A DNA stretch of 64,000 nucleotides, taken from the NCBI RefSeq assembly GCF_041248615.1, contig NZ_CP158426.1; one strand, given 5' to 3'. Origin of the DNA: Escherichia coli (GTDB lineage Bacteria; Pseudomonadota; Gammaproteobacteria; Enterobacterales; Enterobacteriaceae). Positions 23,182-57,106 of this stretch are shown in pieces. The position numbers and the translations under genes were made by a program. Each line of letters opens with the position of its first letter. The first letter of the stretch is position 1. The notes beneath the pieces were generated by a model. It was given only the letters and a program-made list of their open reading frames with translations. It was not told where the DNA came from and made no database searches.

Positions 23182-23195
23182 TGCTCACCTCTCAA

Positions 23196-23215
23196 CACTG
23201 GTAAAGTATACAGTG
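23196..23215 (-). promoter_or_regulatory. LexA box (SOS operator) of dinB
   Basis: Reverse strand reads CACTGTATACTTTACCAGTG (CTGT-N8-ACAG) 15 bp upstream of dinB start. Confidence 0.8.
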
Positions 23216-23251
23216 ATTTCAGGGTTTGAGAAATGCGTAAAGATTCAGCAT

Positions 23252-24175
23252 CTAGCGCGTTCGCTGCGAAAGCACCTGCTGCTTATCCAGCTTTTGCACC
23301 AGCGGCTGCACCACTTTATCCCCATGCTGACCAAAGTATTGATACAGCGTATCGGACGCACTTTTGGTCAGCACCATAATCTCAATGCGTCGGTTGCCCG
23401 CGCTTTGCGGATTTTTGGCATCCAGCAGCATCTGGTCCGCCATTGCGCTTACCTGCATCACTTTATCTTCCGGCATTCCAGCCTCTTCCAGCACCCGACG
23501 GGCCGAAAGCGCGCGATCGCCCGAAAGGTTCCAGTTGTTGTAGATATTGTTTTTGTAGGCCATCGCATCGGTATGCCCGGTGATGATGATCTTATTGTCG
23601 AGCGAATCAAAAACCGGCGCTAACTCCACCAGCAAAGTTTTAAAGAACGGCATAATCTGCGCGCTGCCGCGTTCAAACATATTGCGGTTCTGGTCATCTT
23701 TAATCAGCACGCGCAGTCCCTGGGGAACAATCTCCATCTCCAGATTCGCTTCCATATGCGCATCACGGGCGATGGTGTTGATACTGGTTGCCAGCTCACC
23801 AAGCTCAGTAGCGGATTTCTTCTTCAGCAGCGCCGTTTTCTCATTGACGTCACGCGCTTTTTTCTCCGTCTCTTCCGGCACCGCCACGGTGGCAGGTTTT
23901 GGCGGATGAGACGGGCTGATTTTATTTAACGGCGACAACCCGCCGCCATTGAAAATCGACTGCCCGTGCAGCGCGGCGATAATGCTTTCACGCTCGGATT
24001 TACTGACGCTGTTGACAATCCACAGCGTCATAAACAGCGCCATCATTGCCAAAGTAAAGTCGGCGAACGCCACCTTCCACGCCCCGCCGTGGTGCCCGGC
24101 ATGATTCTTTTTGATCTGCCGCCGGACGATGGTGGTTTTTGCCCCACGCTCGCGGCGGTTGCCCGTCTTTCTCAT
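23252..24175 (-). CDS. lafU: Lateral-flagellar stator protein MotB homologue (OmpA-like C-terminus)
   Basis: TM helix then peptidoglycan-binding domain; start at MRKTG two nt after lafT stop; appears full length (K-12 mbhA is the truncated counterpart). Confidence 0.8.
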   Translation of the reverse strand: MRKTGNRRERGAKTTIVRRQIKKNHAGHHGGAWKVAFADFTLAMMALFMTLWIVNSVSKSERESIIAALHGQSIFNGGGLSPLNKISPSHPPKPATVAVPEETEKKARDVNEKTALLKKKSATELGELATSINTIARDAHMEANLEMEIVPQGLRVLIKDDQNRNMFERGSAQIMPFFKTLLVELAPVFDSLDNKIIITGHTDAMAYKNNIYNNWNLSGDRALSARRVLEEAGMPEDKVMQVSAMADQMLLDAKNPQSAGNRRIEIMVLTKSASDTLYQYFGQHGDKVVQPLVQKLDKQQVLSQRTR

Positions 24176-24177
24176 GC

Positions 24178-25041
24178 TTATTCTTGCTCCAGCATCGCAT
24201 TCACCCACGCGTCGAGGTTGGCGAAGGTCGGTTTGGACGCCAGATGCAGCAGCTTACGCCCGGCGTCCACTGCCAGCAGCGTCGGTTTGCCGCCTGCCTG
24301 CGCCACCAGCACGGTGCGCACGCATTCCAGCAAAGAATGTTCTGCCCGCGCCTGTTGTTCCATGGCGTTGGCGAGCGGGTCCATCAGGCAGTAGCAGATA
24401 AAGACGCCTAAAAACGTCCCCACCAGCGCTGCCGCCACTTTCAGGCCAATCAGTGCGATAGAGCCGTCAATCGACTGCATGGTGATGATGATGCCCAACA
24501 CCGCCGCACAAATGCCAAACCCCGGCATCGCTTCGGCGGTACGTTGCAGCGAGCGCGACGGCGTTAGCAGCGACTCTTCCGCGGTGTCCAGTTCCTGATC
24601 GAGAATGCCTTCCAGTTCATGGGCGTCGATTTTACCCATCGCCATCAGGCGAAAGTTATCGGCAATAAAGGTCACCAGCCGCTTCTGGGTTAACACCAGC
24701 GGGTATTTCTGGAAAATGGTGCTCTCTTCCGGTTGCTCGATATGCTGATCCAGCATGCGCAGGCCGCCGTTTTGCACCATTTCGAGCAACTCATACAGGC
24801 ACATTAATAGCTGACGCTGAAACTCCGGCCCGAGCTGTTTTTTACTGATCACGCCTTTAATTTGATGAGCAATCTCTTTCAGCACATGTTTCGGATTACC
24901 AATAATCATCGCCCCGAAGCCCGCGCCTAAAATAATGATCATTTCCGCCGGTTGCCAGATAGCCACTAATTGCCCGCCCGCTTCAAAATAACCGCCAAAT
25001 ACGCAGCCGAGCACCACCAGTAAACCTAATATTTTTTGCAT
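24178..25041 (-). CDS. lafT: Lateral-flagellar stator protein MotA homologue
   Basis: 287 aa four-TM MotA/TolQ/ExbB family. Confidence 0.85.
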   Translation of the reverse strand: MQKILGLLVVLGCVFGGYFEAGGQLVAIWQPAEMIIILGAGFGAMIIGNPKHVLKEIAHQIKGVISKKQLGPEFQRQLLMCLYELLEMVQNGGLRMLDQHIEQPEESTIFQKYPLVLTQKRLVTFIADNFRLMAMGKIDAHELEGILDQELDTAEESLLTPSRSLQRTAEAMPGFGICAAVLGIIITMQSIDGSIALIGLKVAAALVGTFLGVFICYCLMDPLANAMEQQARAEHSLLECVRTVLVAQAGGKPTLLAVDAGRKLLHLASKPTFANLDAWVNAMLEQE

Positions 25042-25053
25042 GATTTCTTCACT

Positions 25054-25773
25054 TTAATTCGGATAGACAAAATCACGAATTTTCTGCGCGATCTGTTTAT
25101 TCAGTTGACAAATACGGGCTTCGGTTAGCCCTAATACCAGCGCAATCTCTTTGAGATTCATCTCATGCTGGTAATACATGGAGAGGATCAGTTGCTCTTT
25201 TTCGCTTAATAGTGAAAGTGCGTGTTGCAGCATTTGCTGGGTGACAAACTGATCTTCCAGTTCCCTGCCAGCAAGTGGAATGCCTTGCCCTTCGCCGTTC
25301 AGCAGTTCGTCAAGGCTGGCGAGCGTTTCCGCCCCTTCCAGTTGCTGATATTCGAGATAATCTTCATGCGAGATCCCTTCCACGGCCAGTTCTGACCACT
25401 CAGGCTCGTGCCCCAGTTTTTTACGCGTTTCGCGAATCAGGTCTTTCATCTGATGATATTTCTGTCGCAGCTGGCGCGGTCGCCAGTCGAGAGCGCGCAG
25501 CTCATCCAGGATCGCGCCGCGAATACGGTGCACGGCATAGCCCGCAAAACCTTCGTCCGGCAGTCCGTAGCGGCGAATGGCATTAAGCAGCCCCATTAAC
25601 GCCGTTTGTTCCATATCCTGACGATCAATAATGCAATTACACTGCGGGGCAAGTTGCCGCACAACTTTACGCACCAGTGGTAAATAGGCCTGCAAGTAGT
25701 GGCTCTCCTGCTGCGGGGTTAATACCGGCGCGGCAGCAAATTCTTCTGACTCGAATAATACGTCCTGTAGCAT
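25054..25773 (-). CDS. lafS: Flagellar sigma-28 (FliA-like) factor
   Basis: 239 aa with sigma-70 regions 2 and 4. Confidence 0.85.
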   Translation of the reverse strand: MLQDVLFESEEFAAAPVLTPQQESHYLQAYLPLVRKVVRQLAPQCNCIIDRQDMEQTALMGLLNAIRRYGLPDEGFAGYAVHRIRGAILDELRALDWRPRQLRQKYHQMKDLIRETRKKLGHEPEWSELAVEGISHEDYLEYQQLEGAETLASLDELLNGEGQGIPLAGRELEDQFVTQQMLQHALSLLSEKEQLILSMYYQHEMNLKEIALVLGLTEARICQLNKQIAQKIRDFVYPN

Positions 25774-25792: not shown

Positions 25793-26260
25793 TTACTGGA
25801 AGACCACTTTTTTCACCAGCAAATCCTTATATGGTGCGCTCATTTTGCGACGTTGAAGGTCTTTCTTTAACGCATCCGAAATCAGTTTGCGGATGGCAGA
25901 TATTTTCATGCCGCGCAAATCTTCAAATTTCATTTCCGTCAGGCATTCAACCGCAATACTTTGATACAGCGGCTCCTGATGTTTTATTTTTTCCGCTTCT
26001 TTGTCACTGGCGACCACCATCACTAATTCCGCCGACAAATAATGGTCCGCGCCGTTGTTGTCATGCAGCGTGACAATGGTTTCCGGCAACGTCACAAATA
26101 CGCTTTTGCTTTCATCCAGGGTTTCCACCGTTTCCGTCTGCGCGGCGGCAGTCGGTTTTCCTTTTCCGGCATAATGATGCCAGACACCCCATCCAGCTCC
26201 GGCCCCCACCACCAACGCCAGAACGGCGCTGACCACGCCCGCCACCACGATTTTCTTCAT
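25793..26260 (-). CDS. lafF: FliL-like basal-body-associated protein
   Basis: 155 aa, single N-terminal TM segment. Confidence 0.6.
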   Translation of the reverse strand: MKKIVVAGVVSAVLALVVGAGAGWGVWHHYAGKGKPTAAAQTETVETLDESKSVFVTLPETIVTLHDNNGADHYLSAELVMVVASDKEAEKIKHQEPLYQSIAVECLTEMKFEDLRGMKISAIRKLISDALKKDLQRRKMSAPYKDLLVKKVVFQ

Positions 26261-26267: not shown

Positions 26268-27329
26268 TTACACTTTGATCAAAACGGATTCGTTCTGTTG
26301 AAATTGAGGCGCATCATCAAGCTGTAAGGCGGCACTCACCTCTTCCTGCTGATGGCCCGACTGTTGTTGTTGCTGCGACTGCCCTTCGGAGGAAACCTGT
26401 ACGTTCACCTCCATAAAATTTTGCGCCGTCAGATGCTGGCGGAGATCGTCGCTAAACTGTTGTAACGCGCGGCAAACTTCACTTTGGTTCGCGCCGATGT
26501 GCACCATCAGTTTGCCGTTATCGAGTTGTACGACGATCTCGAGCTTGCCAAGCGACGGTGGATCGAGACGGATGGTGGAGATCTGCTGTTGTTTGTTGAG
26601 CTGAAAGTGGATCTGATCTTTCAACAGCGTCGTCAGTTTTTCGCCCAGTTCGTCCATTGAAAGCGTGGCTGGTTTGGCGACAATCTCCTGATGCTGGCTG
26701 ACCAGCTCCGGCGTCTTAACCTGCAACACCGCACGCGCAATAACCGGTTCGCTGTCCGGCACTTTTTCCGTTTTACGCTCGACCTGTGGGCGCGCGGTCA
26801 CACGGGTTAGTTCAGGTTTCGGGCGAGCGGGCTGTGTTGAGACGCGCGGCTGCGTCGGCGCAATGGCATGTAAATCTTCACTGGCGTAAGTCGCCAGCCT
26901 GGCCTGCTGTTCGGGTTTCGCCTGCGGCAACTGACCGATCAGCTCCTGCAACTGCGGCGGCAACGGCGTGAGTTCCTGCTGTTGCGTCGGGCGTTGCGGC
27001 GCTTTTTGCACCACCGCTTTCGTCACTTGCTGGATAACCGGCGATGTTGCGACGTTTCGCGGCTGCGGCGTGTCCTGATGCGGCGCGGTAGGTTGCGGAA
27101 GTAACAGCGCCATTAGCGCCTGCATCGCCACCGGATCGTTCTCCTGCGGGCGCGTCGCCTGTTGCTGACTGGTTTTAGCGCTATGAACGCGCTCCGCCAC
27201 CGCCGCGACCGCCATTTTCGGCAGGGTAAACGCGGGCGCGTTTTCACCGCTCACCGGCGGTAAAATACCCGTTTTCAGCGACGCCGTTTCCACAAGCGTT
27301 CCGAGCGTGGCAAGCAATGCCGGATTCAT
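26268..27329 (-). CDS. lafE: Hook-length control protein (FliK-like)
   Basis: 353 aa, Pro/Gln-rich central region, conserved C-terminal domain. Confidence 0.6.
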   Translation of the reverse strand: MNPALLATLGTLVETASLKTGILPPVSGENAPAFTLPKMAVAAVAERVHSAKTSQQQATRPQENDPVAMQALMALLLPQPTAPHQDTPQPRNVATSPVIQQVTKAVVQKAPQRPTQQQELTPLPPQLQELIGQLPQAKPEQQARLATYASEDLHAIAPTQPRVSTQPARPKPELTRVTARPQVERKTEKVPDSEPVIARAVLQVKTPELVSQHQEIVAKPATLSMDELGEKLTTLLKDQIHFQLNKQQQISTIRLDPPSLGKLEIVVQLDNGKLMVHIGANQSEVCRALQQFSDDLRQHLTAQNFMEVNVQVSSEGQSQQQQQSGHQQEEVSAALQLDDAPQFQQNESVLIKV

Positions 27330-27637
27330 GACTTCTCCGAAAGTAAATTAACAATTGAGTAGGCCAGTACGCCTTCCTGATGCCGCTGATGCTGTTCCAT
27401 ACGCGCCTTCAACACTTCTGCACGCTGCTCGCGCCGTTTAATCAGGGCATTAAACGCGCCGTACAGCTGCGCCTTCACCGCACACAACTGCGCCGCGTCG
27501 GTTTCCGCCGCCACGTAATCGTGAAACTGGCGCATCAACTGCTGATGCAGTGCCGGAAGCCGTCGCCAGCGTTGCTTGTCGAGGGCTTCGTTCATCGCCT
27601 CAACCAGTGCGAAAAGTTGCCTGCGTTGTTTTTCCAT
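27326..27637 (-). CDS. lafD: Small flagellar export chaperone/regulator (FliT-like)
   Basis: 103 aa helical protein downstream of fliS homologue. Confidence 0.45.
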   Translation of the reverse strand: MEKQRRQLFALVEAMNEALDKQRWRRLPALHQQLMRQFHDYVAAETDAAQLCAVKAQLYGAFNALIKRREQRAEVLKARMEQHQRHQEGVLAYSIVNLLSEKS

Positions 27638-27641: not shown

Positions 27642-28034
27642 TTAACCCAGCTTGCCCGAAAGCCCTTCCCAGCCTTCGCGCAGGTTACTTAAGATCAGCA
27701 TCACTTCATCGATTTTCTCTGCCGACAGTTCGCCGCTGGCTTCATACAATCGGTAAACGCAGTGGTCATAGAGGCGCGAAAGGTTGACCACCAGCTCGCC
27801 GCCGGTTTCAAACTCCAGCGAACTGGTGAGCGCATTGAGAATGTCGATGCATTTATTGATGCTCTGGGCTTTCTTCTCGAAACGCCGCCCTTCAATATGG
27901 CTTTTGGCGCGTTCCAGCTCGTCCATCAGGCCAGAAAACAGCACCAGCACCAGTTCCAGAGGCGATGCCGCCGCGGTACGCGCCGCGAGATCGATCTCTT
28001 TATATTGCGAATAGCCGTCCTGTACATGGTACAT
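27642..28034 (-). CDS. lafC: Flagellin-specific chaperone FliS homologue
   Basis: 130 aa with FliS-like core. Confidence 0.75.
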   Translation of the reverse strand: MYHVQDGYSQYKEIDLAARTAAASPLELVLVLFSGLMDELERAKSHIEGRRFEKKAQSINKCIDILNALTSSLEFETGGELVVNLSRLYDHCVYRLYEASGELSAEKIDEVMLILSNLREGWEGLSGKLG

Positions 28035-28056: not shown

Positions 28057-29373
28057 TTACGCGAATGCCGCCATGCTGGCTTTCATGGTGTACACCTCGA
28101 CCAGCGTGTTGGTGTACTCCTCGAGATAACGGTCGTAGTTGGCGTTATAGGTATCAGTAAGCTGATCGCCTTCGTCCTGAATTTTGCTCATCTGATCGTC
28201 AATGTTCTGCTGGCGCAGGGTGATGATGCCGTTGCTGGAGTCCGTGTAGGTGTTAATCAGGTCGTCCATCTGCGCTACCATGCTGTTGTCGCCAACGAAA
28301 ATAGAGGTCAGACCGTCAGGATTTTTCGCCATTTCGTCGTTGAACTGGTCGGAGTCAATCTGTAAGTGGCCGTGAGAATCGAGGGTGATGCCATAGTCAA
28401 CAATCGACACGCCGTTGTAGCTGGCATGGGCGATGTCATCGAGCTGGTTCGCCAGTGAACTGAGTCCGGCGTCGCCTGCAAATACCCCGGCGCTGGTACT
28501 GTCATCACCGTGAGTGGTTAGCGAATCAACCGTATCGATCAGGGTGTTATAGGCATCGACAAAGGTCTGCACTTTCTCCTGGCTGGCGCTGGAATCTTCG
28601 CTAATGTTAAAGGTAGTGAGGTCGCTGTCAGAATCGCTGACTTCGGTGAAAGTCATGGTGACGCCGGGGATCACATCATCAAACGTATTGCTGCTGTTGG
28701 TGATCGCCGGGCCCGTGGCGCTACCGAGATGAATAATCGCGTCCTGGGCTGAGGAAACAACCGTGGCAACGGGCGCGCTGGTGCTATCGTTGCTGGCATC
28801 ATGCCCCGTTACGCTCACCGAAAACGCGCTCTGCGCCCCGGTGCTATCGGAGGTGAGCATAATGGTGGTGGTGCCGTCGGTTTTCACCAACGCCGCTGAA
28901 ACGCCTGGATTATCATCGGAGTCGTTAATCGCGTTCACCAGTTCGCTGGCATCGATAAAACCGTCGCCGTCACCGTTCTGATCTGCCGCCGACAGATCGA
29001 TATCCATGGTGCTGTCGCCCATCGTCAGTTCAAAAGTACCGGTAGCGGAAAAGGCGTCGTCGCCCATACTGAACGTGGTTTGCTGCCCCTGCGCCAGTTG
29101 CTCAACGAAAAACGAGTAGCTTCCCGCCTGCGCCTGGGAATTGGCGGAAATGGTCGCCGAGTCATTATTGCTGGTGGCGGCAAAAGTCACCGGGCCGTCG
29201 GTATCGCTGTTCAGCGCGTCAACGGCGCTCTGGAAATCGCTTAACGCCGAGCTGAGCGAGTCCAGGCCGCTGCTTTCAGCGTCCAGCTCGGTCTGCTTCT
29301 CCTGCAAATTTGCCGCCTGGGTGGCGACATCCGCATAAGCAATTTCTTGCGCAATGGTTCTTGGGTTAATCAT
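28057..29373 (-). CDS. lafB: Filament cap protein (FliD/HAP2 homologue)
   Basis: 438 aa, conserved N- and C-terminal heptad regions, Ser/Thr/Asp-rich centre. Confidence 0.75.
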   Translation of the reverse strand: MINPRTIAQEIAYADVATQAANLQEKQTELDAESSGLDSLSSALSDFQSAVDALNSDTDGPVTFAATSNNDSATISANSQAQAGSYSFFVEQLAQGQQTTFSMGDDAFSATGTFELTMGDSTMDIDLSAADQNGDGDGFIDASELVNAINDSDDNPGVSAALVKTDGTTTIMLTSDSTGAQSAFSVSVTGHDASNDSTSAPVATVVSSAQDAIIHLGSATGPAITNSSNTFDDVIPGVTMTFTEVSDSDSDLTTFNISEDSSASQEKVQTFVDAYNTLIDTVDSLTTHGDDSTSAGVFAGDAGLSSLANQLDDIAHASYNGVSIVDYGITLDSHGHLQIDSDQFNDEMAKNPDGLTSIFVGDNSMVAQMDDLINTYTDSSNGIITLRQQNIDDQMSKIQDEGDQLTDTYNANYDRYLEEYTNTLVEVYTMKASMAAFA

Positions 29374-29404
29374 TGATGACTCCGGGTAACGATGTCAGGT
29401 TAAT

Positions 29405-29420
29405 GGCAAAAGGCGTGCCA
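29405..29420 (-). promoter_or_regulatory. Sigma-54 promoter (-24/-12) for lafB operon
   Basis: Reverse strand TGGCAC-GCCTT-TTGCC, perfect GG-N10-GC spacing, ~32 bp upstream of lafB start. Confidence 0.6.
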
Positions 29421-29506
29421 ATATTTTTTATGTGAAAAATCAATAGATTGAAAAACAGGCGGAAATGGTGTTTCCGGTCTGGCGGAAAAAAGCCTGCCGC
29501 TGAAAG

Positions 29507-29567
29507 CACAACACCGCCTGCAGGCGGTGTTGTTCGTGGCCGGATAAGGCGTTTACGCCGCATCGGC
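29507..29567. terminator. Perfect 13-bp-stem palindrome plus REP element downstream of lafA
   Basis: acaacaccgcctg/caggcggtgttgt followed by gccggataaggcgtttacgccgcatcggc. Confidence 0.55.
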
Positions 29568-29577
29568 AAGTCCGCCA

Positions 29578-30492
29578 TTACTGCAGCAGGCTGGAAACCA
29601 TGCTGGACATGCTGTTGGACTGTTTCAGCATGGTGATGCCGGTCTGCATCAGCACCTGCTGTTTGGTCATGTTGGACGCTTCCGTCGCGTAGTCGGTATC
29701 CATGATGTTACCGATAGCGACTTCGGTGTTGTCTTGCATACTGGTCAGGTTGTTGGCAGTGTCGTTCAGACGGTTGATAGAGGCACCCAGCTTGGACTGG
29801 ATCTGAGACACGTCATCCATCGCGGTAGAAATGCTGGTGATCATCTGGTTAGCCGAGCCAGACGCAGTCAGCTCAGTACCGCCAGAAACGCCTGCGGTGC
29901 CCGTGGTGTCAGCCTGATCCGCACTAAAGGAGTTGCTGATAGCAGAAAGATCAGTCACCAGGGTATTCAGCTGGCTTGAAATATTCACGGTCATGGTGTC
30001 GGAAGATTCCGCGCCCACCTGGAAAGTTACCGCGCTCTGGAACAGACCGTCAGTACCGGTGTTGCTGGTGCCGGAAACACCGAACAGGTTGGTGCCGCCG
30101 TAAGTGGTGTTTTGCAGCATGTCAGACATCTGCTGGCCCAGTTCGTCGTATTCGTCCTGCATCGCCTGCAGGTCGTCGTCGCTGTAGGTGCCGTTCGCTG
30201 CCTGAGTTGACAGGTCTTTCATACGACCCAGCACGTCAGACATTTCGTCGAACATGCTGTCGGCGGTTTGCAGCATCGCGGTGGCATCATTGATGTTGCT
30301 CAGCGCAACACCCATACCGCTGGACTGTGCTGTCAGACGGTTAGCAATTTGTTTGCCTGCGGCGTCATCGGCAGAAGAGTTAATCCGGTTACCTGTCGCC
30401 AGGCGTTCCATAGATGTAGACAGAGAAGAGCTGCTTTTGCTGATTGCATTAACGGCAGCCATTGAGGCGTTATTGGTGTTAATAGATAACAT
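29578..30492 (-). CDS. lafA: Lateral flagellin
   Basis: Start at MLSINTNNASM with RBS AAGGAG; conserved flagellin N and C termini; short (~305 aa). Confidence 0.9.
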   Translation of the reverse strand: MLSINTNNASMAAVNAISKSSSSLSTSMERLATGNRINSSADDAAGKQIANRLTAQSSGMGVALSNINDATAMLQTADSMFDEMSDVLGRMKDLSTQAANGTYSDDDLQAMQDEYDELGQQMSDMLQNTTYGGTNLFGVSGTSNTGTDGLFQSAVTFQVGAESSDTMTVNISSQLNTLVTDLSAISNSFSADQADTTGTAGVSGGTELTASGSANQMITSISTAMDDVSQIQSKLGASINRLNDTANNLTSMQDNTEVAIGNIMDTDYATEASNMTKQQVLMQTGITMLKQSNSMSSMVSSLLQ

Positions 30493-30926
30493 GATACTGC
30501 TCCTTGGGATTAATCGTTTTCGTTTCGATACCCTGTAAAAACGACACCTCAGGAGCAAACTTAAAATCGCCGTTAAAATTTTTTTGCCACGTATTATCCG
30601 ATGCCACTTTTAGCTAAAAAAAGCAGAGTTTAAATTCAGATAAAAAGATTATTAGCAATATCTGCCACATGGCCAGGTATCAAAATATGTCTTTATCAAA
30701 CGCTTGATATAGTTAAGATTGTCATCAATTATCGCGTTTTGTTCTCAATGTACTGATGCCAAAATTTACATTGCGTTGCAAATAGTACACATTTGGCTAT
30801 TGTACCTGTCCTGTCATTTCGTTACATTTCCACGCCATATAGTGATTAAGAATAATCCTATTACCGTAAAATATTAATTATCACGCAGAAAAATCATCTT
30901 CTCAGGGACGTATAAGACTGTGCTTT

Positions 30927-37530: not shown

Positions 37531-38316
37531 TTACAGCGTCTGGCTGATGTACTGCAACATATCGTCCGCCGCCGACACCATTTTGGCGTTCATCTCGTAA
37601 GCGCGTTGCACCGTAATCATCGCCACCATTTCGTTGACGATATCCACGTTCGAGCCTTCCAGCGCATTGTCCTGCAAGGTGCCAAGCCCATCTTCGCCCG
37701 GTACGCCTTCGGTCGGCTGACCGCTGGCAGCGGTTTCCAGATAGAGGTTGTCGCCTTCAGCGGAAAGCCCCGCCGGGTTGGCGAAGTTCACCAGCGTCAG
37801 TTGCCCTAACTCAGTCACGTCGCTGTCGCCGGGTAAGATCGCTGTCACCGTGCCGTCCTCACCAAACGCAACATTCGTCGCCCCCGCCGGAACGTCGATT
37901 TCCGGCTGTAACGGCAAGCCTTGCGAGTTGGTCAGCACGCCGTCGGCGTTCACCTGCAAGTTGCCGTCGCGGGTATAGGCGATATCGCCGTTGGCCTTTT
38001 GCACCTGCAAAAACCCCTGCCCCATAATGGCGACATTCATCGCGTTGTCGGTGGTTTCGACGTTGCCTTCGGTGAAGGTTTTCTGAGTGCCAACAATGCG
38101 CACGCCGCTACCGAATTGCAGCCCGGTCGGCATGATGTTGTTCTGGTCGAGCATCGCGCCCGGCGCTTCCTGGGTCTGGTAGAACAGATCCTGAAACATC
38201 ACCCGGTCGCGCTTGAAGCCGGTGGTGTTAACGTTGGCGATGTTGTTGGCAATCGCGCTCATTTCAGCATCCTGCGCCGAGAGGCCGGTTTTGCTGATCC
38301 ATAATGCTGCGTTCAT
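37531..38316 (-). CDS. lfgG: Distal rod protein FlgG homologue
   Basis: 261 aa, conserved rod N-terminus (SKTGLSAQDAEMSAIANNIANVNTTGFKRD) and C-terminus. Confidence 0.9.
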   Translation of the reverse strand: MNAALWISKTGLSAQDAEMSAIANNIANVNTTGFKRDRVMFQDLFYQTQEAPGAMLDQNNIMPTGLQFGSGVRIVGTQKTFTEGNVETTDNAMNVAIMGQGFLQVQKANGDIAYTRDGNLQVNADGVLTNSQGLPLQPEIDVPAGATNVAFGEDGTVTAILPGDSDVTELGQLTLVNFANPAGLSAEGDNLYLETAASGQPTEGVPGEDGLGTLQDNALEGSNVDIVNEMVAMITVQRAYEMNAKMVSAADDMLQYISQTL

Positions 38317-41908: not shown

Positions 41909-41945
41909 TTCCTGCGTCACTCCTGCTTCAATCCGCATACGCTAA

Positions 41946-41960
41946 GCAATCGCCGTGCCA
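41946..41960 (-). promoter_or_regulatory. Sigma-54 promoter for lfgB-L operon
   Basis: Reverse strand TGGCAC-GGCGA-TTGC, perfect consensus. Confidence 0.6.
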
Positions 41961-41989
41961 TTTTTTAAGTCACTGATGAGAAAGGGTTT

Positions 41990-42727
41990 ATGAGTTTTCA
42001 ATTTTGCAGGCGGAAGTTGTTCTTCCTCCTGGTGCTGGCCTTACCGGGCTACGCCGCCGTCCACCCCGTGCAACACAGCGCGCGGGAACAAGTCAACGCC
42101 CAGGTGCTGAATGCCGCGAGCCAGGAAATTGAATCGATGGCGCAGCAACGGCAGTGGCATGACTATCGCTACACCTTTAAGGTCTACATTCCCTCGCAGA
42201 TTGCGACCGCCGCCCCCTGTGCGACAACACCCGGCGTTACGCTCACTTCGCCTGCGGACATCGCCCTCAACCGGATGAACTTCACCGTCAGTTGCCCGCA
42301 AAGCTGGCAGATGAACGTGGCGGTGCGCCCGGATGTACTGGTGCCCGTGGTGATGACAAAGTCACTGGTTGCCCGCGATACGCCGCTCACGGCGAATGAT
42401 GTGGAGTTGAAGCCCTACAACTTCAGCGCCCAGCGGCGGGATGTGTTGATGGAGCTCGATGACGCAATTGGTTTAAGCAGTAAGCACGCGTTGCAACCGG
42501 GCAGGCCCATCACCAAAGAAGAGCTGGTTTCGCCAGTGCTGGTCGAACGCGATCAGCCGGTGATGATTGTTTACCAGAGCGCGGGGATCACCGCCTCGAT
42601 GCCCGGCGTGGCGCTGAAAAATGGCCGCAAAGGCGAGATGGTGAAAGTACGTAACGCAAGCAGCCAGCGGGTCATCAGCGCGATGGTGGCAGAAAGCGGC
42701 GTGGTGACGACGGTAAGCGCGGAGTAA
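41990..42727 (+). CDS. lfgA: P-ring assembly chaperone FlgA homologue
   Basis: 245 aa, signal peptide, divergent from lfgB. Confidence 0.7.
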   Translation: MSFQFCRRKLFFLLVLALPGYAAVHPVQHSAREQVNAQVLNAASQEIESMAQQRQWHDYRYTFKVYIPSQIATAAPCATTPGVTLTSPADIALNRMNFTVSCPQSWQMNVAVRPDVLVPVVMTKSLVARDTPLTANDVELKPYNFSAQRRDVLMELDDAIGLSSKHALQPGRPITKEELVSPVLVERDQPVMIVYQSAGITASMPGVALKNGRKGEMVKVRNASSQRVISAMVAESGVVTTVSAE

Positions 42728-42914: not shown

Positions 42915-44339
42915 ATGTCTGAATTTGAATTGCTCGTGAAAGATCTTCTTTTAAAATCAGAAGAAGACGAGAAAAAGCGACAAGAAAAAGATCGAGAATT
43001 AATTTCAAAGGTTCTTGAAATCTATGATCAAAAATATGTTGCAGAACTCCTACGAAAAGTAGGAAAAAATGAATGGAGCAGAGAAACACTTAACCGTTGG
43101 ATAAATGGTAAGTGTAACCCTAAACAATTAACTTCTGCTGAGGAAACTTTACTTCGAAAGATGCTCCCAGAACCTCCCGAACATCATCCTAACTATACAT
43201 TTCGTTTTATTGATTTATTCGCAGGGATTGGTGGTATTCGTAAAGGCTTCGAAAATATTGGTGGGCAGTGTGTTTTTACTAGCGAATGGAATAAAGAAGC
43301 GGTAAGAACCTACAAAGCTAATTGGTTTAATGATGAACTAAATCATAAATTTAATCTTGATATACGAGAAGTCACTTTAAGTGATAGAGATGATGTTTCC
43401 GAAATGGAAGCCTATAATCATATAGACAAAAATATTCCAGATCATGATGTCCTTCTGGCCGGTTTTCCATGTCAACCCTTTAGTCTGGCTGGGGTAAGCA
43501 AGAAAAATTCTCTGGGGCGTGCACATGGTTTTGAATGTGAGGCACAAGGAACACTATTTTTTGATGTCGCTCGAATTATTAAATCAAAAAAACCAGCTAT
43601 TTTTGTGCTTGAGAATGTGAAGAACCTTAAAAGTCATGATAAAGGTAAGACTTTTAAAGTCATCATGGAAACACTCAATGAATTAGGGTATGAAGTCGCC
43701 GATGCTGGTGTGACTGGCTCAGATGATCCTAAAATTATAGATGGAAAACATTTTTTACCCCAACATCGTGAGCGTATAGTGTTGGTAGGATTTCGTAGGG
43801 ATCTAAATATTCACAAGGATTTCACGTTACGAAATATTAACCGCTTTTACCCTCAAAACAGGCCAACATTTGGTGAATTATTAGATCATGATGTTGACGA
43901 CAAATATATTTTGACTCCAAGGTTATGGGAATATCTTTACAATTATGCAAAAAAACATGCAGCAAAAGGAAATGGATTTGGTTTTGGTTTAGTGGATCCT
44001 AAAAATCCAGATAGTATCGCACGAACGCTGTCTGCTCGTTACCATAAAGATGGCTCTGAAATACTGATCGATCGTGGCTGGGATAAGGCTGTCGGTGAAA
44101 TCGATTTTAGTAATCCAGCGAATCAAGAGAATCGACCAAGAAGACTGACACCTCATGAATGTGCCAGGTTAATGGGTTTTGAAAAACCAGGGGGAAGACC
44201 TTTTAGAATACCTGTATCAGATACTCAAGCTTATAGACAATTTGGGAACTCAGTTGTTGTGCCAGTATTTGAAGCTGTAGCAAGATTACTAGAACCGTAC
44301 ATACAAAAGGCTGTCAGCATGCAAGTTATTAACGATTAA
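42915..44339 (+). CDS. DNA cytosine-5 methyltransferase, M.EcoRII/Dcm family (predicted CCWGG specificity)
   Basis: Motif I FAGIGG, motif [10 protein letters not shown], motif VI ENV; near full-length match to recalled M.EcoRII/Dcm; AT-rich. Confidence 0.9.
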
Positions 44340-44363
44340 TAATAATTAACTTTCACTATTGTG

Positions 44364-44386
44364 AGGCCTTTTTTATTAAAGGCCTC
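44364..44386. terminator. Bidirectional hairpin between convergent methylase and endonuclease genes
   Basis: gaggcc-ttttttattaaa-ggcctc. Confidence 0.55.
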
Positions 44387-44426
44387 TAAATATATAATCA
44401 TAAGTTATTATAAGTATACTTTTATA

Positions 44427-45632
44427 TTATACAAAATCTTCATACAGCGTTATTAACTGTGTGATAAAACCCTCTAACGTTAATAATCCCTCCCTGATTT
44501 CCTCCGGATATTTTTTATGAAGAGGGGAAGGTACAACCAAGGTGACACCTTCAGCTCTCATTTCGTTAAATTGAGCAACTGAGACACCCTCTTGTAAGGT
44601 AAACAAATATATTTTGTTGATTTTATTTGCTTCATTGAGTGCCTGACGCCACCGATCCTTACATGTTGTTTTTACAGCAAGCATACGGAGTTTTTCTCTT
44701 GGAAAGTGATCATCATGGTAAGCTGCCGCTGATGGAAAAAGAAAATCGGGTTTCTTTTTTCCTTCAGTAATACATTGAGTAGCAAAATGATGCAGTCCAT
44801 GCTCAATAAAAATTTGCTCAAGATGTAGCTCCAGTGATTTCCCGGCTCGAGATTTTCTTCGATTACTAACAGAGTTAGCCATAGCTATAAAATCATCTAC
44901 AGAACCAAACCCTTGACGGATGATGTCCAGTACGTGAATTTCTTCAACCATTAGAAAGAGATCATATTCAATACGGCGGCGTTCTAAAAGTTGGTCATCT
45001 GGACTGGTTACGCCTGTTGGGTAATAACCCGCAGCATATTGAATAATCTCTAAGCCAGAAGGAAAGCTATGTTTCCAGCTTTCCGGAATAACATATTCCT
45101 TTTGAGAGATTTTTGGCCTTGATGCGAGTACACCAAGTATTTCACTGGCAGGCCCAAACATTAAAGTTCCAGGAATGATCTCCCCAATAGCTGATTCCAG
45201 TACATCCTCTTCTTCTGGGCTAACACAAACCCATACATCAACACTTTTGCTGTCTCTCCCTGGCTCATGTTCAAACGCAAGCACAGACAAAGCACCTGTA
45301 TTTTCCGGATCCTGTAGGGGACTGCCAGCCCCCCACCGAGTGATGCGTTTTTCATTTCTTGTTTGCCCGAAATACTTATTATTGTAGTAAATAGCGCGAA
45401 CCTCACTGTCTACACATTCATGAGAGGAATAAGTTGCGCGCAATAAAACCGAAGGATTTTTTTCTGACGTATGATCTATAGATGGGAAAAGTTCAGCGAC
45501 GATACCAGAAGGGATATATACCCCCACTTGATGCCCTCCTGTTGCACCAGTGTCGTTTGCTGAAAGACGTTTAATATAGAGATAGTTGTTACCACCGACC
45601 TTATCAAGCAGCCAATCTTGTAATCCTGACAT
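44427..45632 (-). CDS. Type IIE restriction endonuclease, EcoRII family
   Basis: 401 aa; N-terminus YIKRLSANDTGATGGHQVG and catalytic domain match recalled R.EcoRII closely. Confidence 0.9.
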   Translation of the reverse strand: MSGLQDWLLDKVGGNNYLYIKRLSANDTGATGGHQVGVYIPSGIVAELFPSIDHTSEKNPSVLLRATYSSHECVDSEVRAIYYNNKYFGQTRNEKRITRWGAGSPLQDPENTGALSVLAFEHEPGRDSKSVDVWVCVSPEEEDVLESAIGEIIPGTLMFGPASEILGVLASRPKISQKEYVIPESWKHSFPSGLEIIQYAAGYYPTGVTSPDDQLLERRRIEYDLFLMVEEIHVLDIIRQGFGSVDDFIAMANSVSNRRKSRAGKSLELHLEQIFIEHGLHHFATQCITEGKKKPDFLFPSAAAYHDDHFPREKLRMLAVKTTCKDRWRQALNEANKINKIYLFTLQEGVSVAQFNEMRAEGVTLVVPSPLHKKYPEEIREGLLTLEGFITQLITLYEDFV

Positions 45633-45736: not shown

Positions 45737-45804
45737 ATTAAAGTTTTGCCGCCTGTTAACCGCTTTACCGGAGTAACCCACCTAAATACCGAGACGAGGT
45801 TGCG

Positions 45805-46521: not shown

Positions 46522-46597
46522 CGCGAATACCTTCCCCATAGCGGAAATGGATTTTCCGCCTGATTCACAATCCTTTGTTTTTGATTATAAAAATTCC

Positions 46598-46613
46598 CGG
46601 CACGCTTATTGCA
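46598..46613 (+). promoter_or_regulatory. Sigma-54 promoter upstream of the unknown 311-aa gene and transferase gene
   Basis: CGGCAC-GCTTA-TTGCA with correct GG-N10-GC spacing; lies inside the ORF-track N-terminus, implying the real start is at 46648. Confidence 0.5.
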
Positions 46614-46647: not shown

Positions 46648-47580
46648 ATGAGTTTTATTGAATGTTACGAACCGGAATACGTGCGCAATTTTATGACGCA
46701 ATATCCCGATTCGCCTTTGTACATCCGCAAGGTGTGGAAAAACGAGATTCGCCAGAGCCTGATGCTGACAGAGCCAGAAAGCTGCGAAGCGGTGCTCAAC
46801 GATGCCAGGGCCTTTGATTTACAGCTCACCTACCGCCCGGCGGAAGATAATGCCGCAGAACTCTCCGCGCGCGATGCGATAGTAAACCAGGTCATTTTGA
46901 GCACCCTTACGCTCCCCGATTTACCCCCGGAGCTTTCACTGTACGCCGTCGGGATTTTGCTCTCCCGCGCCAGCAAAATGCCGGGCAGAGACGGAGATAT
47001 TCTTGCCCGCTTGACGACGCTGCCACAGGCGCTGGCCGATCATGCACAAAAAGGCACGCTACAGGCACAGTTCGCCCAGCTGCCGCCCGTGCCACAGCTG
47101 GCGCGCCAGTTGATGACGCTGCTCGGCAGTTGTGCGTTTGACTGGTCGATTCTGCCGGAAAGCCCGCGCAAAACTTCGCTGCCGTTGCAGATGCCTTTGC
47201 TGGCGCTACATGACGCCAACAGCGAAGCCCTGTTACAACAGCAGCTTCAGGCACAGTGGCAAACCACCTGGCAACAGCATTTTGCCACCGCGCCCTGGAT
47301 GATGCGTAACTGGCTGATTTACCGCGTTTACCATGAGGTGATTGGGCAGGCAGACGGAGCAGATTATTGCCCGCTGGTGTGCGATTTTTATCTTATCCGC
47401 ACGTTAATCAGTTTATGGACGCTGGATGGTTCTCCGCTGCGACAGGAGGATATTTTCGCCCTCTTTGCCATGTTTGAACGCTGGCGAGCCAGTGAAAATG
47501 CTGTGCTGATTCGCCAACAAATTCAGGCTGAACGTTCCGCAGATCCCCTGCTTTATGCGTTTTCACTGCTGTCTTGCTAA
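46648..47580 (+). CDS. Hypothetical protein (311 aa), no recognisable domain; start at MSFIECYEPE
   Basis: ORF with RBS ggaag 7 nt upstream; sits between flgN homologue and the large transferase gene. Confidence 0.5.
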   Translation: MSFIECYEPEYVRNFMTQYPDSPLYIRKVWKNEIRQSLMLTEPESCEAVLNDARAFDLQLTYRPAEDNAAELSARDAIVNQVILSTLTLPDLPPELSLYAVGILLSRASKMPGRDGDILARLTTLPQALADHAQKGTLQAQFAQLPPVPQLARQLMTLLGSCAFDWSILPESPRKTSLPLQMPLLALHDANSEALLQQQLQAQWQTTWQQHFATAPWMMRNWLIYRVYHEVIGQADGADYCPLVCDFYLIRTLISLWTLDGSPLRQEDIFALFAMFERWRASENAVLIRQQIQAERSADPLLYAFSLLSC

Positions 47581-47626
47581 CGCTTTTTGGCCGGTTTTCC
47601 CGGCCTTATCGACTTCGTAAACTATC

Positions 47627-50092
47627 ATGCAAACCCTCATCAAAACACTCGCCACCCAGCGCGAAAAACCGTTCGTCAGCGTCGTCACGCCCACATGGAA
47701 CCGTAGCGCATTCCTGCCGTACCTGCTCTATATGTACCGCTATCAGGACTACCCGGCAGACCGCCGCGAACTGGTCATCCTCGACGACTCGCCGCAAAGC
47801 CATCAGCACATCATCGACCGTTTGACCGATGGCACGCCGGAAGCCTTTAACATCCGCTACATCCATCATCAGGAAAGACTGCCGCTGGGCAAAAAACGCA
47901 ACATGCTCAATGAACTGGCAGTGGGGGAATATATCCTCTGCATGGATGACGACGACTACTACCCGGCAGATAAAATCTCTTACACCATCGCCATAATGCA
48001 AAAACACCGGGCGCTCATCTCCGGTTCCGACCAGATCCCCATCTGGTACAGCCACATCAATCGCATCTTCCAAAGCCGCAGCTTTGGCTCACATAACATC
48101 CTCAACGGCACCTTTTGCTATCACCGTAACTACCTGAAAAAGCACCGTTACGACGATGATTGTAATTTAGGCGAAGAGAAAAGTTTCACCAACAATTTCA
48201 GCGTTAACCCGCTACAACTGCCCGGCGAGCGCACGATTTTGTGTATCTCGCATAGCCACAACACCTTTGATAAAGACTTTATTCTCGGGGCCAGCACGCC
48301 AGTAAACGCGGCGCTTACGGATATCGTCCGCGATCCGCTGCTCCGCAACGCCTATCTGAGTCTGCATAACGCCACTCATCACCAGGCGATCAACCATCAG
48401 GCGATCGATCAGGTCGTACTGATCAATCTGGATAAACGCCCGGATCGCTTACAACAGATCCGTGAAGAACTGGCATTGCTGCATATTCCACCTGAGAAGA
48501 TCACCCGCCTTGCCGCCAGTGAAGATCAAAACGGCCAACGGGGACGACGCCAGTCGCACTTGCAGGCGCTGCGCCTGGCGCAACAGCACGGCTGGCAAAA
48601 CTACCTGCTGCTGGAAGATGACGCGGTTATTCTCAAGCAGGAAAAACATATTCAGGTACTGAACACGCTGCTGGCGAGCCTGGCGAAAATTCCCTGGCAG
48701 GTGATGATCCTTGGCGGCGAAATTTCGCAGGGAACGATGCTAAAAAGTTTGCCGGGGCTGGTGCACGCGCGGGACTGCCGCAAGGTGTGCGCTTATCTGG
48801 TGAACAGCCGCTACTACCCGCAACTGGCGCAGCAGATGAGCAACGATGAGCACTCGCTGGAAGAGTGCTGGCAGCCGCTGCTACACGCCGACAAATGGCT
48901 GGCCTGTTACCCGAGCCTTTGTTACCAGCGACCGGGCTTTAGTGATATCGAGAAAAAAACGACTGACAACATTGCTCACTATTTCAATAAGTTACCCGTA
49001 GCCACCAAGCCATCTACATTACCCATCGCCGATACCATCGGCTTTTTTATGGAAACCTCATTCCACTACGCGCTCTACCGCCCAATCATCACCGCTCTGC
49101 AGGCGCAGGGGCAGAGCTGTACGCTGGTGATCAATGACCGCGTATTTAAACCATTTCTGGATGAAATGCTGGCGACGCTAAAAAGCATTGACGATCCGCA
49201 GCTCAAAGGTATGCGCTTATCTGAAATGCAGGCGCACGGTCAGCGGGTAAAATGCCTGGTCAGCCCCTATCACACGCCCGCGCTCAGTGGCCTGGCAGCG
49301 GTGAACGTCCGCGCCATGTACGGCTTAGCCAAAGAGGCGTGGAACCACGCCGACTGGAATCGTTTTTACCAACGCATTTTGTGTTATAGCCACTACAGCC
49401 AGCAGACACTGGCGCATTTCGGTAGCGCAAAAGTGGTCGGCAATCCACGTTTCGACGCCTGGCATAACGGCACGTTTGCCCGCACTCTGCCGGAAAATAT
49501 TCAACCCGATTCCCGTAAACCTACGGTGCTCTACGCCCCCACGTTTGGCGCATTAAGCTCCCTGCCCCACTGGGCAGAAAAATTGGGGCGCTTAAGCGGT
49601 GATGTGAACCTGATTTGCAAACTGCACCACGGCACCTGCTCGCGCCCGGAAGAAGCTGCATCGCTGGCACTGGCGCGCAGGCATTTAAAACAGCGCACCG
49701 ACTCCGCCCGCCACACGCTGGCGCTACTGGCAAAGGCCGATTACGTGCTGACCGATAACAGCGGCTTTATTTTCGATGCTATCCACGTTGATAAGCGGGT
49801 GATCCTGCTCGACTTTCCGGGCATGAGTGAATTACTCGAAGGCGAGAAAAGCTACTCCACGCCGGAGAGCGCCGATCAGCAAATCCGCGAAATATTGCCG
49901 GTGGCTCATGATATGGCAGAGTTGCGTTACTTGTTGTCAGAGGCGTTTGACTGGGGGGCGGTGCAGGCGCGGCTTACGAAGATTCGTCATCACTATTGCG
50001 ATGCGTTTATGGATGGCAAGGCGGGAGAACGGGCGGCGATGGTGATTGTGGAGGCGCTGGCGGACAAGGAATCGTCAGGGATATGTCGATAA
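47627..50092 (+). CDS. Three-domain transferase: GT2 glycosyltransferase + GT25-like domain + TagF-like CDP-glycerol glycerophosphotransferase domain
   Basis: N-terminal DxD-containing GT2 (CMDDDDYY), central GT25-like (VVLINLDKRPDRL), C-terminal TagF/TagB-type motif (LYAPTFG). Confidence 0.75.
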   Translation: MQTLIKTLATQREKPFVSVVTPTWNRSAFLPYLLYMYRYQDYPADRRELVILDDSPQSHQHIIDRLTDGTPEAFNIRYIHHQERLPLGKKRNMLNELAVGEYILCMDDDDYYPADKISYTIAIMQKHRALISGSDQIPIWYSHINRIFQSRSFGSHNILNGTFCYHRNYLKKHRYDDDCNLGEEKSFTNNFSVNPLQLPGERTILCISHSHNTFDKDFILGASTPVNAALTDIVRDPLLRNAYLSLHNATHHQAINHQAIDQVVLINLDKRPDRLQQIREELALLHIPPEKITRLAASEDQNGQRGRRQSHLQALRLAQQHGWQNYLLLEDDAVILKQEKHIQVLNTLLASLAKIPWQVMILGGEISQGTMLKSLPGLVHARDCRKVCAYLVNSRYYPQLAQQMSNDEHSLEECWQPLLHADKWLACYPSLCYQRPGFSDIEKKTTDNIAHYFNKLPVATKPSTLPIADTIGFFMETSFHYALYRPIITALQAQGQSCTLVINDRVFKPFLDEMLATLKSIDDPQLKGMRLSEMQAHGQRVKCLVSPYHTPALSGLAAVNVRAMYGLAKEAWNHADWNRFYQRILCYSHYSQQTLAHFGSAKVVGNPRFDAWHNGTFARTLPENIQPDSRKPTVLYAPTFGALSSLPHWAEKLGRLSGDVNLICKLHHGTCSRPEEAASLALARRHLKQRTDSARHTLALLAKADYVLTDNSGFIFDAIHVDKRVILLDFPGMSELLEGEKSYSTPESADQQIREILPVAHDMAELRYLLSEAFDWGAVQARLTKIRHHYCDAFMDGKAGERAAMVIVEALADKESSGICR

Positions 50093-56119: not shown

Positions 56120-57106
56120 TCAGGAGAAAACTTCGATACCTTGCTTGCGCATGGAGGCCAGTCGATAGCGCAGTGCGCGCGGGGTAATGCCTAACAGGTC
56201 GGCAATTTTGCTGCGGTTGCCCTGATATTTACGCATCAGGTCGGCGATATATTGATACTGGGCGCTACGTCCGGCCTGGCCTAAATCGCTGGTTTCCGCA
56301 ACAGATACGGAGGGCTGAACAGGCCATTGCAGTTCACTGTGATCGGCAACGTCTATTTCCGGCAGGCCTAAGGCATCCGGGAAAATCACGCCGTCGCGAT
56401 TTAAAATCATTCCACGCTGAATGGCGTTCTCCAGCTGGCGCACGTTGCCGGGCCAGCGGTAATTGAGCAGCGCCCGGCGAGTAGATTCTGAAAGGGTGAT
56501 ATTTTTCACCAGCACTGTGGAGTATTTTTTAATAAATGACTCTGCCAGCGGGATAATATCGTTCAGGCGTTCACGCAGCGGCGGCATGGTAATAGGAATA
56601 ACCGCCAGACGATAATAGAGATCTTCACGAAAACGCCCGGCGGCGACTTCCTGCTCAAGGTTTTTATTGGTGCAGGCAATCAGGCGAAAATTGAGTTTAA
56701 TTTGTCGGTTACTGCCTAATCGCTCAACCTGCTGTTCCTGCAATACGCGTAATATTTTGGCCTGTAGCGCCAGCGGCATATCGCCAATTTCATCGAGCAA
56801 TAAGGTGCCGTTATTCGCCAGTTCCATTTTTCCTGGCACGCTGGCAATTGCGCCGGTAAATGCGCCTTTGTCGTAGCCAAATAAGGTAGATTCCAGCATG
56901 TTTTCCGGGATCGCCGCGCAGTTCACGCCGATATAGGGCGCGTTATCATTTTCACCAAAGGCTACGGTGTGAATATATTTCGCCACGCATTCTTTGCCCG
57001 CGCCGGTTTCGCCCTGAATGAGCACCGGCACGTTAAATGCGGCGACACGCTTTGCCAGAGTAAAAGCGTTAATGCTGGAAGCGGCAGTTGCAATAAGTTC
57101 AGACAT
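56120..57106 (-). CDS. lafK: Sigma-54-dependent transcriptional activator lacking an N-terminal receiver domain
   Basis: AAA+ domain with Walker A (GETGAGKE) and GAFTGA motif, C-terminal HTH; only 328 aa, in-frame stop upstream. Confidence 0.8.
   Translation of the reverse strand: MSELIATAASSINAFTLAKRVAAFNVPVLIQGETGAGKECVAKYIHTVAFGENDNAPYIGVNCAAIPENMLESTLFGYDKGAFTGAIASVPGKMELANNGTLLLDEIGDMPLALQAKILRVLQEQQVERLGSNRQIKLNFRLIACTNKNLEQEVAAGRFREDLYYRLAVIPITMPPLRERLNDIIPLAESFIKKYSTVLVKNITLSESTRRALLNYRWPGNVRQLENAIQRGMILNRDGVIFPDALGLPEIDVADHSELQWPVQPSVSVAETSDLGQAGRSAQYQYIADLMRKYQGNRSKIADLLGITPRALRYRLASMRKQGIEVFS

Follow-up and report, generated by a model that had tools for sequence, protein, structure and literature searches.

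A predicted sigma-54 promoter with a candidate LafK site and an IHF consensus upstream of lafBCDEFSTU in the Escherichia coli Flag-2 locus

The intergenic region between lafA and lafB in this Escherichia coli genome carries a sigma-54 element on the minus strand (29405–29421) that is predicted, with a probability of roughly 0.85, to be the RpoN promoter of the eight-gene lafBCDEFSTU operon, run by LafK and IHF from sites located upstream of it. All coordinates refer to the window, which is the whole stretch of 64,000 nucleotides that was analysed (contig NZ_CP158426.1). The discovery is a modest one, as the sigma-54 promoter of lafB has already been published for E. coli PCN033 and the regulatory logic copies the Vibrio model. 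What is added here is an enhancer-type palindrome with its phasing, an IHF site and a further promoter, the third in the window, built to the same plan. The features are collected in Table 1.

Table 1. Positions of the genes and predicted regulatory features within the 64,000-nucleotide window.
Feature	Position	Strand	Remarks
Sigma-54 promoter element TTGGCACGCCTTTTGCC	29405..29421	-	GG = -25/-24, GC = -13/-12
GGAG ribosome-binding site	29380..29383	-	GGAG kept in relatives
Proximal palindrome GGAAACACCATTTCC (GGAA-N7-TTCC), candidate LafK site UAS1	29461..29475		centre about 74 nt upstream of predicted start
Distal degenerate copy GGCAGGCTTTTTTCC, candidate UAS2	29484..29498		23 bp upstream of UAS1
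Predicted IHF site, perfect consensus AATCAATAGATTG (pattern WATCAANNNNTTR)	29438..29450	+	between palindrome and -24
GC-rich 11-bp hairpin ACAACACCGCC-TGCA-GGCGGTGTTGT, then GCTTTC	29508..29533	-	probable lafA terminator
REP-like element GCGGCGTAAACGCCTTATCCGGCC	29538..29581		just after lafA stop; sub-threshold Rfam naRNA4 (REP-derived)
lafB, filament cap protein (FliD homologue)	28057..29373	-	438 aa
lafC, FliS-type flagellin chaperone	27642..28034	-	
lafD, in FliT-like chaperone position	27326..27637	-	103 aa
lafE, hook-length control protein (FliK)	26268..27329	-	
lafF, FliL family protein	25793..26260	-	
lafS, lateral sigma-28 (FliA/WhiG family)	25054..25773	-	NF009091, 444 bits
lafT, MotA-type stator protein	24178..25041	-	
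lafU, MotB-type stator protein	23252..24175	-	start from E. coli 042 annotation
lafK, sigma-54 activator	56120..57106	-	328 aa; AAA+ from residue 6, AAA lid, C-terminal HTH_8
Sister lfgB promoter	41945..42026	-	sigma-54 ATGGCACGGCGATTGCT 41961-41945; palindrome GGAAGAACAACTTCC 42026-42012
Third promoter	46543..46613	+	palindrome GGAAATGGATTTTCC 46543-46557; sigma-54 CCGGCACGCTTATTGCA 46597-46613

The locus is the Flag-2 (lateral-type flagellar) locus of E. coli, and the genes that follow the element have the content and order of its cluster 3 operon, lafBCDEFSTU. The region surrounding the lafB promoter matches two E. coli chromosomes (including NZ_OW967178) at 100% identity and E. coli 042 at 98.4% DNA identity, and in the latter the annotated gene order is unchanged; the annotation of strain 042 under the match reads lafA, fliD, fliS, a hypothetical gene, fliK, fliL, a FliA-type sigma factor, motA, lafU and dinB. 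The Flag-2 locus of E. coli was reportedly first described by Ren et al. in 2005 (J Bacteriol 187:1430). Cluster 3 has been described for strain 042 and surveyed in the Enterobacterales (PMC6993521). Flag-2 is present in about one quarter of complete E. coli genomes, with the region kept in approximately 1275 of 5426. Within the window, an EcoRII restriction-modification pair sits between lfgA and lfgM.

The earlier note on this DNA had placed a perfect sigma-54 promoter in front of the fliD homologue, and the motif is found where it was described, with the minus strand reading TGGCAC at 29420–29415, GCCTT at 29414–29410 and TTGCC at 29409–29405. Its distance from the start codon, put at about 32 bp, is 31 nt to the lafB ATG (29373–29371), and the GGAG ribosome-binding site said to lie in the predicted leader is located at 29383–29380, 6 nt upstream of that ATG. 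The word "perfect" holds for the core TGGCAC-N5-TTGC, which is exact, but is slightly generous for the extended consensus YTGGCACG-N4-TTGCW, where 12 of 13 positions are matched and the last is C in place of A or T. This extended consensus is said to come from Barrios et al. 1999. The GG and GC doublets are exactly 10 nt apart, as in -24/-12 promoters, and the element lies in the 204-nt non-coding gap between lafA and lafB, oriented toward lafB. By the usual spacing, transcription would start near 29394–29395 and give a leader of about 21 nt.

The exact core TGGCAC-N5-TTGC occurs twice in the 64-kb window, before lafB and before lfgB, against an expectation of 0.25. When GG and GC are made obligatory, a match to the extended consensus at 12 or more of the 13 positions is reached at three sites, where Markov-2 simulations predict 0.31, and all three are correctly oriented just upstream of genes, namely lafB, lfgB and the gene after lfgN. 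A look-alike upstream of lafA, TGGCAGATATTGCT (30667–30654), has a spacing of only 8 nt and is not counted as a sigma-54 site. A sigma-70-like match at 29398–29369 overlaps the lafB start codon and was dismissed. The promoter also contains an inverted repeat of its own, TGGCA-N7-TGCCA, which is not conserved (relatives have TTGCT) and is regarded as a coincidence, because the last consensus position happens to be C.

The element is conserved well beyond E. coli. LafB was aligned with distant homologues and 80 fliD loci were fetched, one per species, among which 36 related lafB loci from Enterobacterales, Pseudomonas/Serpens and Vibrio carry a sigma-54 element upstream of the fliD homologue. 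All 32 sigma-54-positive loci outside Vibrio, together with Vibrio proteolyticus, match at 10–13 of 13 positions at a distance of 47–111 nt from the fliD homologue, and four further Vibrio loci read TGGCAY-N5-TTGA. The positive Enterobacterales belong to Escherichia, Pseudocitrobacter, Phytobacter, Citrobacter, Leminorella, Enterobacter, Pseudescherichia, Pantoea, Rosenbergiella and Tatumella; the other positives are four Pseudomonas/Serpens genomes and V. proteolyticus. None of the remaining 42 fliD loci, mostly from betaproteobacterial flagellar systems, scores above 9/13. Over 47 promoters, TGGCA and TTG carry 2.0 bits per position and the spacer approximately 0.1 bits, and conserved -24 and -12 regions around a free spacer mark a functional element that selection maintains. 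E. coli alleles with up to 10% divergence here never differ at -24, at -12, in the IHF site or in the half-sites of the palindrome, and the interior of the palindrome changes. Consensus, position and deep evolutionary conservation from Vibrio to Escherichia all support the earlier identification of a sigma-54 promoter.

The eight genes from lafB to lafU are as tightly packed as the note had claimed, with successive gaps of 22, 4, -4, 7, 19, 12 and 2 nt. The start of lafU bears on the last value, as its longest ORF would begin at 24208 and produce a 31-nt overlap with lafT instead of the 2-nt gap. Identities were taken from Pfam and NCBIfam assignments. LafD is without a match in either Pfam or NCBIfam and has been named the FliT orthologue (PMC6993521). 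All eight ORFs are intact and each is as long as its counterpart in strain 042. Inside the lafB–lafU block, terminator-like and sigma-70-like matches are no commoner than in shuffled sequence, and no conserved promoter or terminator signal was found. A single sigma-54 promoter for the whole block, which the note had proposed, is the favoured arrangement, because the sole internal LafS-type match is confined to close relatives and is probably due to chance. Co-transcription of all eight genes would follow this arrangement.

Upstream of the block, lafA ends at 29578, and the REP-like element and then the hairpin lie between lafA and the lafB promoter. An Rfam scan of the lafA–lafB intergenic region gave nothing above threshold, the naRNA4 match reaching 30.7 bits where the gathering threshold is 59.5. 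The RNA fold of the intergenic region has a z-score of -4.6, and the GGCGGTGTTGTGCTTTC block of the hairpin is kept in Citrobacter and other relatives. With a probable lafA terminator in this position, lafB is expected to have its own promoter. Some read-through from lafA may occur, as the U-tract of the terminator is poor (GCUUUC).

Late promoters of the lateral system were also sought. Matches to the classical sigma-28 consensus TAAA-N15-GCCGATAA were all weak and unconvincing. Alignment of lafA upstream regions yields a lateral sigma-28-type pattern, TTAAKTT-N12-GYCGYTTT with an A/T tract on its 5' side, that is found before lafA in essentially all enterobacterial loci examined. In the window it is matched at 15 of 15 positions at 30538–30564, before lafA, and at 13 of 15 positions at 45739–45766, before lfgM. 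A third match of 13/15 at 26281–26307, before lafF, was considered as an internal promoter and rejected, being not conserved beyond close relatives of E. coli.

These observations bear on a somewhat unlikely alternative to the single promoter, in which the sigma-54 promoter is genuine but other promoters contribute, with lafS, lafT and lafU also transcribed through LafS-dependent read-through from lafA or from an internal promoter. The operon would then be under mixed class 2/class 3 control, as are fliDST and fliA of Salmonella. The weak U-tract after the lafA hairpin is consistent with such read-through, the lafF match is only 21 nt upstream of its gene, and the leaders of Rosenbergiella and Tatumella have a GCCGAT sigma-28-like box on the 3' side of the sigma-54 site. 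Against this, the lafA terminator hairpin is conserved, and the lafF match is found only in Escherichia and Pseudocitrobacter relatives and is absent in Citrobacter, Enterobacter, Leminorella and others. The operon contains no second match of at least 13/15, its internal terminator-like matches occur at the frequency of shuffled sequence, and the gaps between its genes are too small for separate promoters.

The note had proposed a search for an upstream activator binding site. This search returned a candidate, an inverted repeat common to the three sigma-54 sites that score highest in the window. Of the five copies of the bare form GGAA-N7-TTCC in the window, three are at sigma-54 promoters. 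The three promoters share a longer flank, GGAAR-N5-YTTCC-GCCTG, which ends 35 nt (lafB), 46 nt (lfgB) and 35 nt (third promoter) before TGGCAC, and the corresponding 20-mer GGAAR-N5-YTTCCGCCTG is found with zero mismatches only at these three sites. The palindrome starts approximately 55 nt before TGGCA at lafB and approximately 66 nt before it at lfgB, so that the lafB-type and lfgB-type offsets differ by about 11 bp, or one helical turn.

The palindrome is likewise widespread at lafB promoters, where a perfect copy is present at the expected offset in 32 of 36 related promoters. Measured from the T of TGGCA, it starts at -54 to -60 in the lafB promoters outside Vibrio and at -66 or -67 in Vibrio. 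The half-sites carry 2.0 bits and the seven inner bases approximately 0.1 bits. Perfect palindromes number 37 in 7.2 kb of promoter DNA from the positive loci; as controls, 240 kb flanking these loci contain 5 and 291 kb from the negative loci contain one. A second copy of the UAS2 type is found at the same offset in Pseudocitrobacter, Leminorella, Enterobacter kpr-6, Pseudescherichia and UBA7338, and Pseudomonas/Serpens have a second copy of the palindrome 40–52 nt farther upstream.

Between the palindrome and the -24 region lies the predicted IHF site, to which IHF probably binds. The pattern WATCAANNNNTTR is matched 8 times in the window, with 2.2 matches expected. The block that contains the site, TCAATCTATTGATT, is invariant in the Escherichia/Pseudocitrobacter alignment, and the motif YAA-N4-TTGATW recurs in most enterobacterial lafB promoters.

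The locus encodes no sigma-54 activator other than LafK, and LafK is the protein most likely to read the palindrome. Its gene is intact in the window and its product is without a sensory N-terminal domain. Not every lateral cluster has the gene, that of Plesiomonas being without lafK. LafK has been classed as a type Ic activator with PspF and HrpRS (Francke et al., PMC3162934). A dimeric HTH protein that reads a 15-bp palindrome, a pair of sites upstream, DNA bent by IHF and strict phasing would amount to a textbook enhancer-dependent design. The assignment of the palindrome to LafK is suggested by co-occurrence and architecture. A description of the LafK DNA site was not found in the searchable literature, which leaves out key primary papers. 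We give an even chance to the broader proposal that GGAA-N7-TTCC is an undescribed LafK site whose phasing and accompanying IHF site define a gammaproteobacterial lateral LafK regulon in Vibrio, Pseudomonas/Serpens and many Enterobacterales, including a third operon in E. coli.

The sister promoters point in the same direction. The palindrome of the lfgB promoter falls within the first codons of the divergent gene lfgA, and lfgB promoters from eight other genera combine a sigma-54 element of 11–13/13 with a palindrome at -66 to -68. The third promoter, located after lfgN, precedes a homologue of a FliB-like lysine methylase and an 821-aa glycosyltransferase (46648–50092), which are putative flagellin-modifying enzymes. 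In the lafK–lfiM divergent region, there is neither a sigma-54 site of at least 10/13 nor a palindrome, which agrees with reports of a LafK-independent lateral fliM operon in Vibrio.

That the palindrome is instead a second lafA terminator, or the site of another regulator, is unlikely. In its favour, the palindrome together with the T-run after it in the window, CCTGTTTTTC, fits a weak terminator pattern, and no published LafK site was found with which it could be compared. As an intrinsic terminator, the sequence at 29460–29476 would have a 6-pair stem with 3 GC pairs; it was rejected, since the T-run is mostly absent elsewhere and the motif also occurs within lfgA. The T-run is missing after the palindrome in most other genera, the stem is of 4–6 pairs, and its bases are conserved around a free loop. 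The palindrome also stands at a fixed distance before the third promoter and before that of lfgB, where it is inside the lfgA coding sequence, and offsets of -55 and -66, one helical turn apart, fit activation from one face of the helix and not termination. As to another regulator, a palindrome of 15 bp is what a dimer with an HTH would naturally recognise, and the locus has no sigma-54 activator besides LafK.

With LafK as the reader of the palindrome, the promoter could work as follows. Sigma-54 holoenzyme would bind the -24 TGGCA and -12 TTGC regions as a closed complex that is unable to open alone. LafK, encoded 27 kb away and made up solely of the AAA+ domain that contacts sigma-54 and a Fis-type HTH, would bind as dimers to the proximal palindrome and to the weaker copy 23 bp upstream. 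Bending of the AT-rich IHF site would allow the LafK oligomer to touch the closed complex and to open it using ATP. Transcription would then run from near 29394 through all eight genes, and LafS produced from the operon would turn on late promoters with the TTAAKTT-N12-GYCGYTTT pattern, the one before lafA among them. The lafB promoter would thus be the middle tier of the Flag-2 cascade, giving rise to the cap, the chaperones, hook-length control, the stator and a sigma-28 factor, which then directs the production of flagellin.

This organisation differs from that of the Flag-1 system. In enteric Flag-1 systems, fliDST, fliK, fliL, fliA and motAB are distributed over several operons controlled by FlhDC/sigma-70 (class 2) and sigma-28 (class 3). 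The cap, chaperones, sigma-28 and stator of the two systems are homologous, whereas Flag-2 has them in one block behind a sigma-54 promoter. A closer parallel is PspF, which like LafK consists of an AAA+ domain and an HTH without an N-terminal sensor. Promoters of the pspA type have two upstream sites, an IHF site and -24/-12 elements, and the layout at lafB is the same in kind, although the recognition sequence and the regulon are different. PspA restrains PspF, and LafK is not known to have an equivalent partner.

The closest published precedent within the species is that of Liu et al. 2015 in BMC Genomics (PMC4578781), whose sigma-54 passage reports sites before lfgB and lafB in E. coli PCN033. 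Species, locus, consensus and both promoters are the same as here, and the two exact matches of the window are the PCN033 sites. In that passage, the sites serve solely to argue that the locus may be functional; an upstream palindrome, an IHF site, phasing and a third promoter do not appear in it.

The regulatory model itself comes from Vibrio. Sigma-54 without core polymerase is a poor binder of many genuine promoters. For this reason, the result of an EMSA in which purified RpoN alone gave no shift of the V. parahaemolyticus lafB promoter fragment (PMC9817140) is weak counter-evidence. In an rpoN mutant of the same species, the mRNA of lafBCD is reduced, and its lafB gene has a predicted sigma-54 site (PMC9817140). 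LafK and sigma-54 are reported to activate the class 2 lateral genes of V. parahaemolyticus, including the fliD-to-motB operon with its lateral sigma-28 gene, in the passages of three papers that cite Stewart and McCarter 2003 (PMC4481668, PMC3930126, PMC3658858). The two systems share gene order, a sigma-54 element before the cap gene (TAGGCACGTATCTTGCGAT in V. parahaemolyticus), a LafK-type activator without a sensory domain and a sigma-28 gene nested in the sigma-54 operon that leads to the next tier, and related Vibrio loci have the palindrome as well. They differ in that the Vibrio palindrome starts approximately 66 and not 55 nt before TGGCA, and several Vibrio species have TTGA for TTGC at -12. 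The Vibrio system is backed by genetics, whereas its E. coli counterpart is known from sequence.

It is quite unlikely that the promoter is intact yet idle, Flag-2 being cryptic or decaying and unexpressed. LafA was undetected in the ST131 strain EC958 under the laboratory conditions tested (PMC4637896), a result that may mean that the cascade is silent or that it needs a signal. Strain 042 has a frameshift in lfgC, according to the relevant passage of PMC4578781, Flag-2 is affected by deletions or insertions in many lineages, and the EcoRII pair is itself an insertion between lfgA and lfgM. In the window, on the other hand, lafK, lfgC and the eight operon genes are all intact. The E. coli alleles keep the functional positions of the promoter, the IHF site and the palindrome while neighbouring bases vary, which points to ongoing purifying selection, and the region is retained in about 1275 of the 5426 complete genomes. 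Expression of Flag-2 in Yersinia enterocolitica at low temperature has been reported, as related by a citing paper. If an inducing signal is to be sought, the defined promoter, the candidate enhancer and the IHF site offer reporter constructs and targets for mutation, and the palindrome signature could predict LafK targets in other genomes.

A chance sigma-54 match without function is scarcely credible and effectively refuted, for although the one-mismatch 16-mer by itself is not significantly enriched in the window (8 versus 3.5 expected), exact and extended matches are enriched approximately tenfold and are all properly placed before flagellar genes, and the element is conserved across Vibrio, Pseudomonas and Escherichia with a variable spacer.

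The sequence GGAA-N7-TTCC, a palindrome that precedes the sigma-54 element of the lafB promoter, also appears in a third promoter of the same design located after lfgN. The genes downstream of this promoter encode a weak homologue of a FliB-like flagellin lysine-N-methylase and a family-2 glycosyltransferase of 821 aa. This shared design ahead of methylase-like and glycosyltransferase genes suggests that the flagellin-modification genes of variable region 1 are members of the same regulon as the other palindrome/sigma-54 promoters. Within the window, another perfect copy of the palindrome lies inside lfgG (37889-37903, flank GGCTG). This copy is probably a chance occurrence, because no sigma-54 element was seen within 130 nt beyond it on the gene strand.

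Promoter and gene features within the window
Feature	Position	Strand	Context
Sigma-54 look-alike, TGGCAGATATTGCT	30654-30667	-	upstream of lafA
LafS-type pattern	30538-30564	-	upstream of lafA
LafS-type pattern, 13/15 match	45739-45766	+	before lfgM
Third palindrome/sigma-54 promoter, CCGGCACGCTTATTGCA	46543-46613	+	after lfgN
FliB-like methylase homologue (weak)	46648-47580		downstream of third promoter
Family-2 glycosyltransferase	47627-50092		downstream of third promoter
C-5 cytosine methylase	42915-44339	+	EcoRII-type pair
EcoRII endonuclease	44427-45632	-	EcoRII-type pair

Among the fliD loci of other genomes, four lateral Vibrio promoters (L025, L026, L028 and L030, from Vibrio variabilis, V. 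mediterranei, V. barjaei and V. qingdaonensis) read TGGCAY-N5-TTGA, with GA at -12 rather than the canonical GC. These elements are located approximately 80-110 nt upstream of fliD and retain the palindrome at -66/-67 from TGGCA. In Rosenbergiella and Tatumella (L042-L044, L049-L050), the sigma-54 element is followed by a lafB leader of approximately 80-85 nt with a GCCGAT box in it. This box may be an extra sigma-28-type promoter in these genera.

The sigma-54 look-alike upstream of lafA has a GG-GC spacing of only 8 nt instead of the required 10 and is probably non-functional; in V. parahaemolyticus, the lafA promoter is reported to be bound by RpoN (PMC9817140). The lafA upstream region also carries TTAAKTT-N12-GYCGYTTT, a promoter pattern of the lateral sigma-28 (LafS) type with an A/T tract ahead of it; the pattern is kept in lafA upstream regions of approximately 20 genera. 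Its -10 box is different from that of classical sigma-28 promoters, GCCGATAA. Before lfgM, the pattern is matched at 13/15. The normally single unit lfgA-lfgM-lfgN is interrupted here by an EcoRII-type restriction-modification pair between lfgA and lfgM (42915-45632).

At the distal end of the lafB operon, only 70 bp (23182-23251) separate the lafU stop from dinB. This gap contains the dinB LexA box CTGTATACTTTACCAG and no terminator-like hairpin, therefore transcription of the lafB operon might read on into dinB-yafNOP. Immediately 3' of the lafA stop codon, upstream of the terminator hairpin, is a REP-like palindromic element (29538-29581) with a sub-threshold match to Rfam naRNA4.
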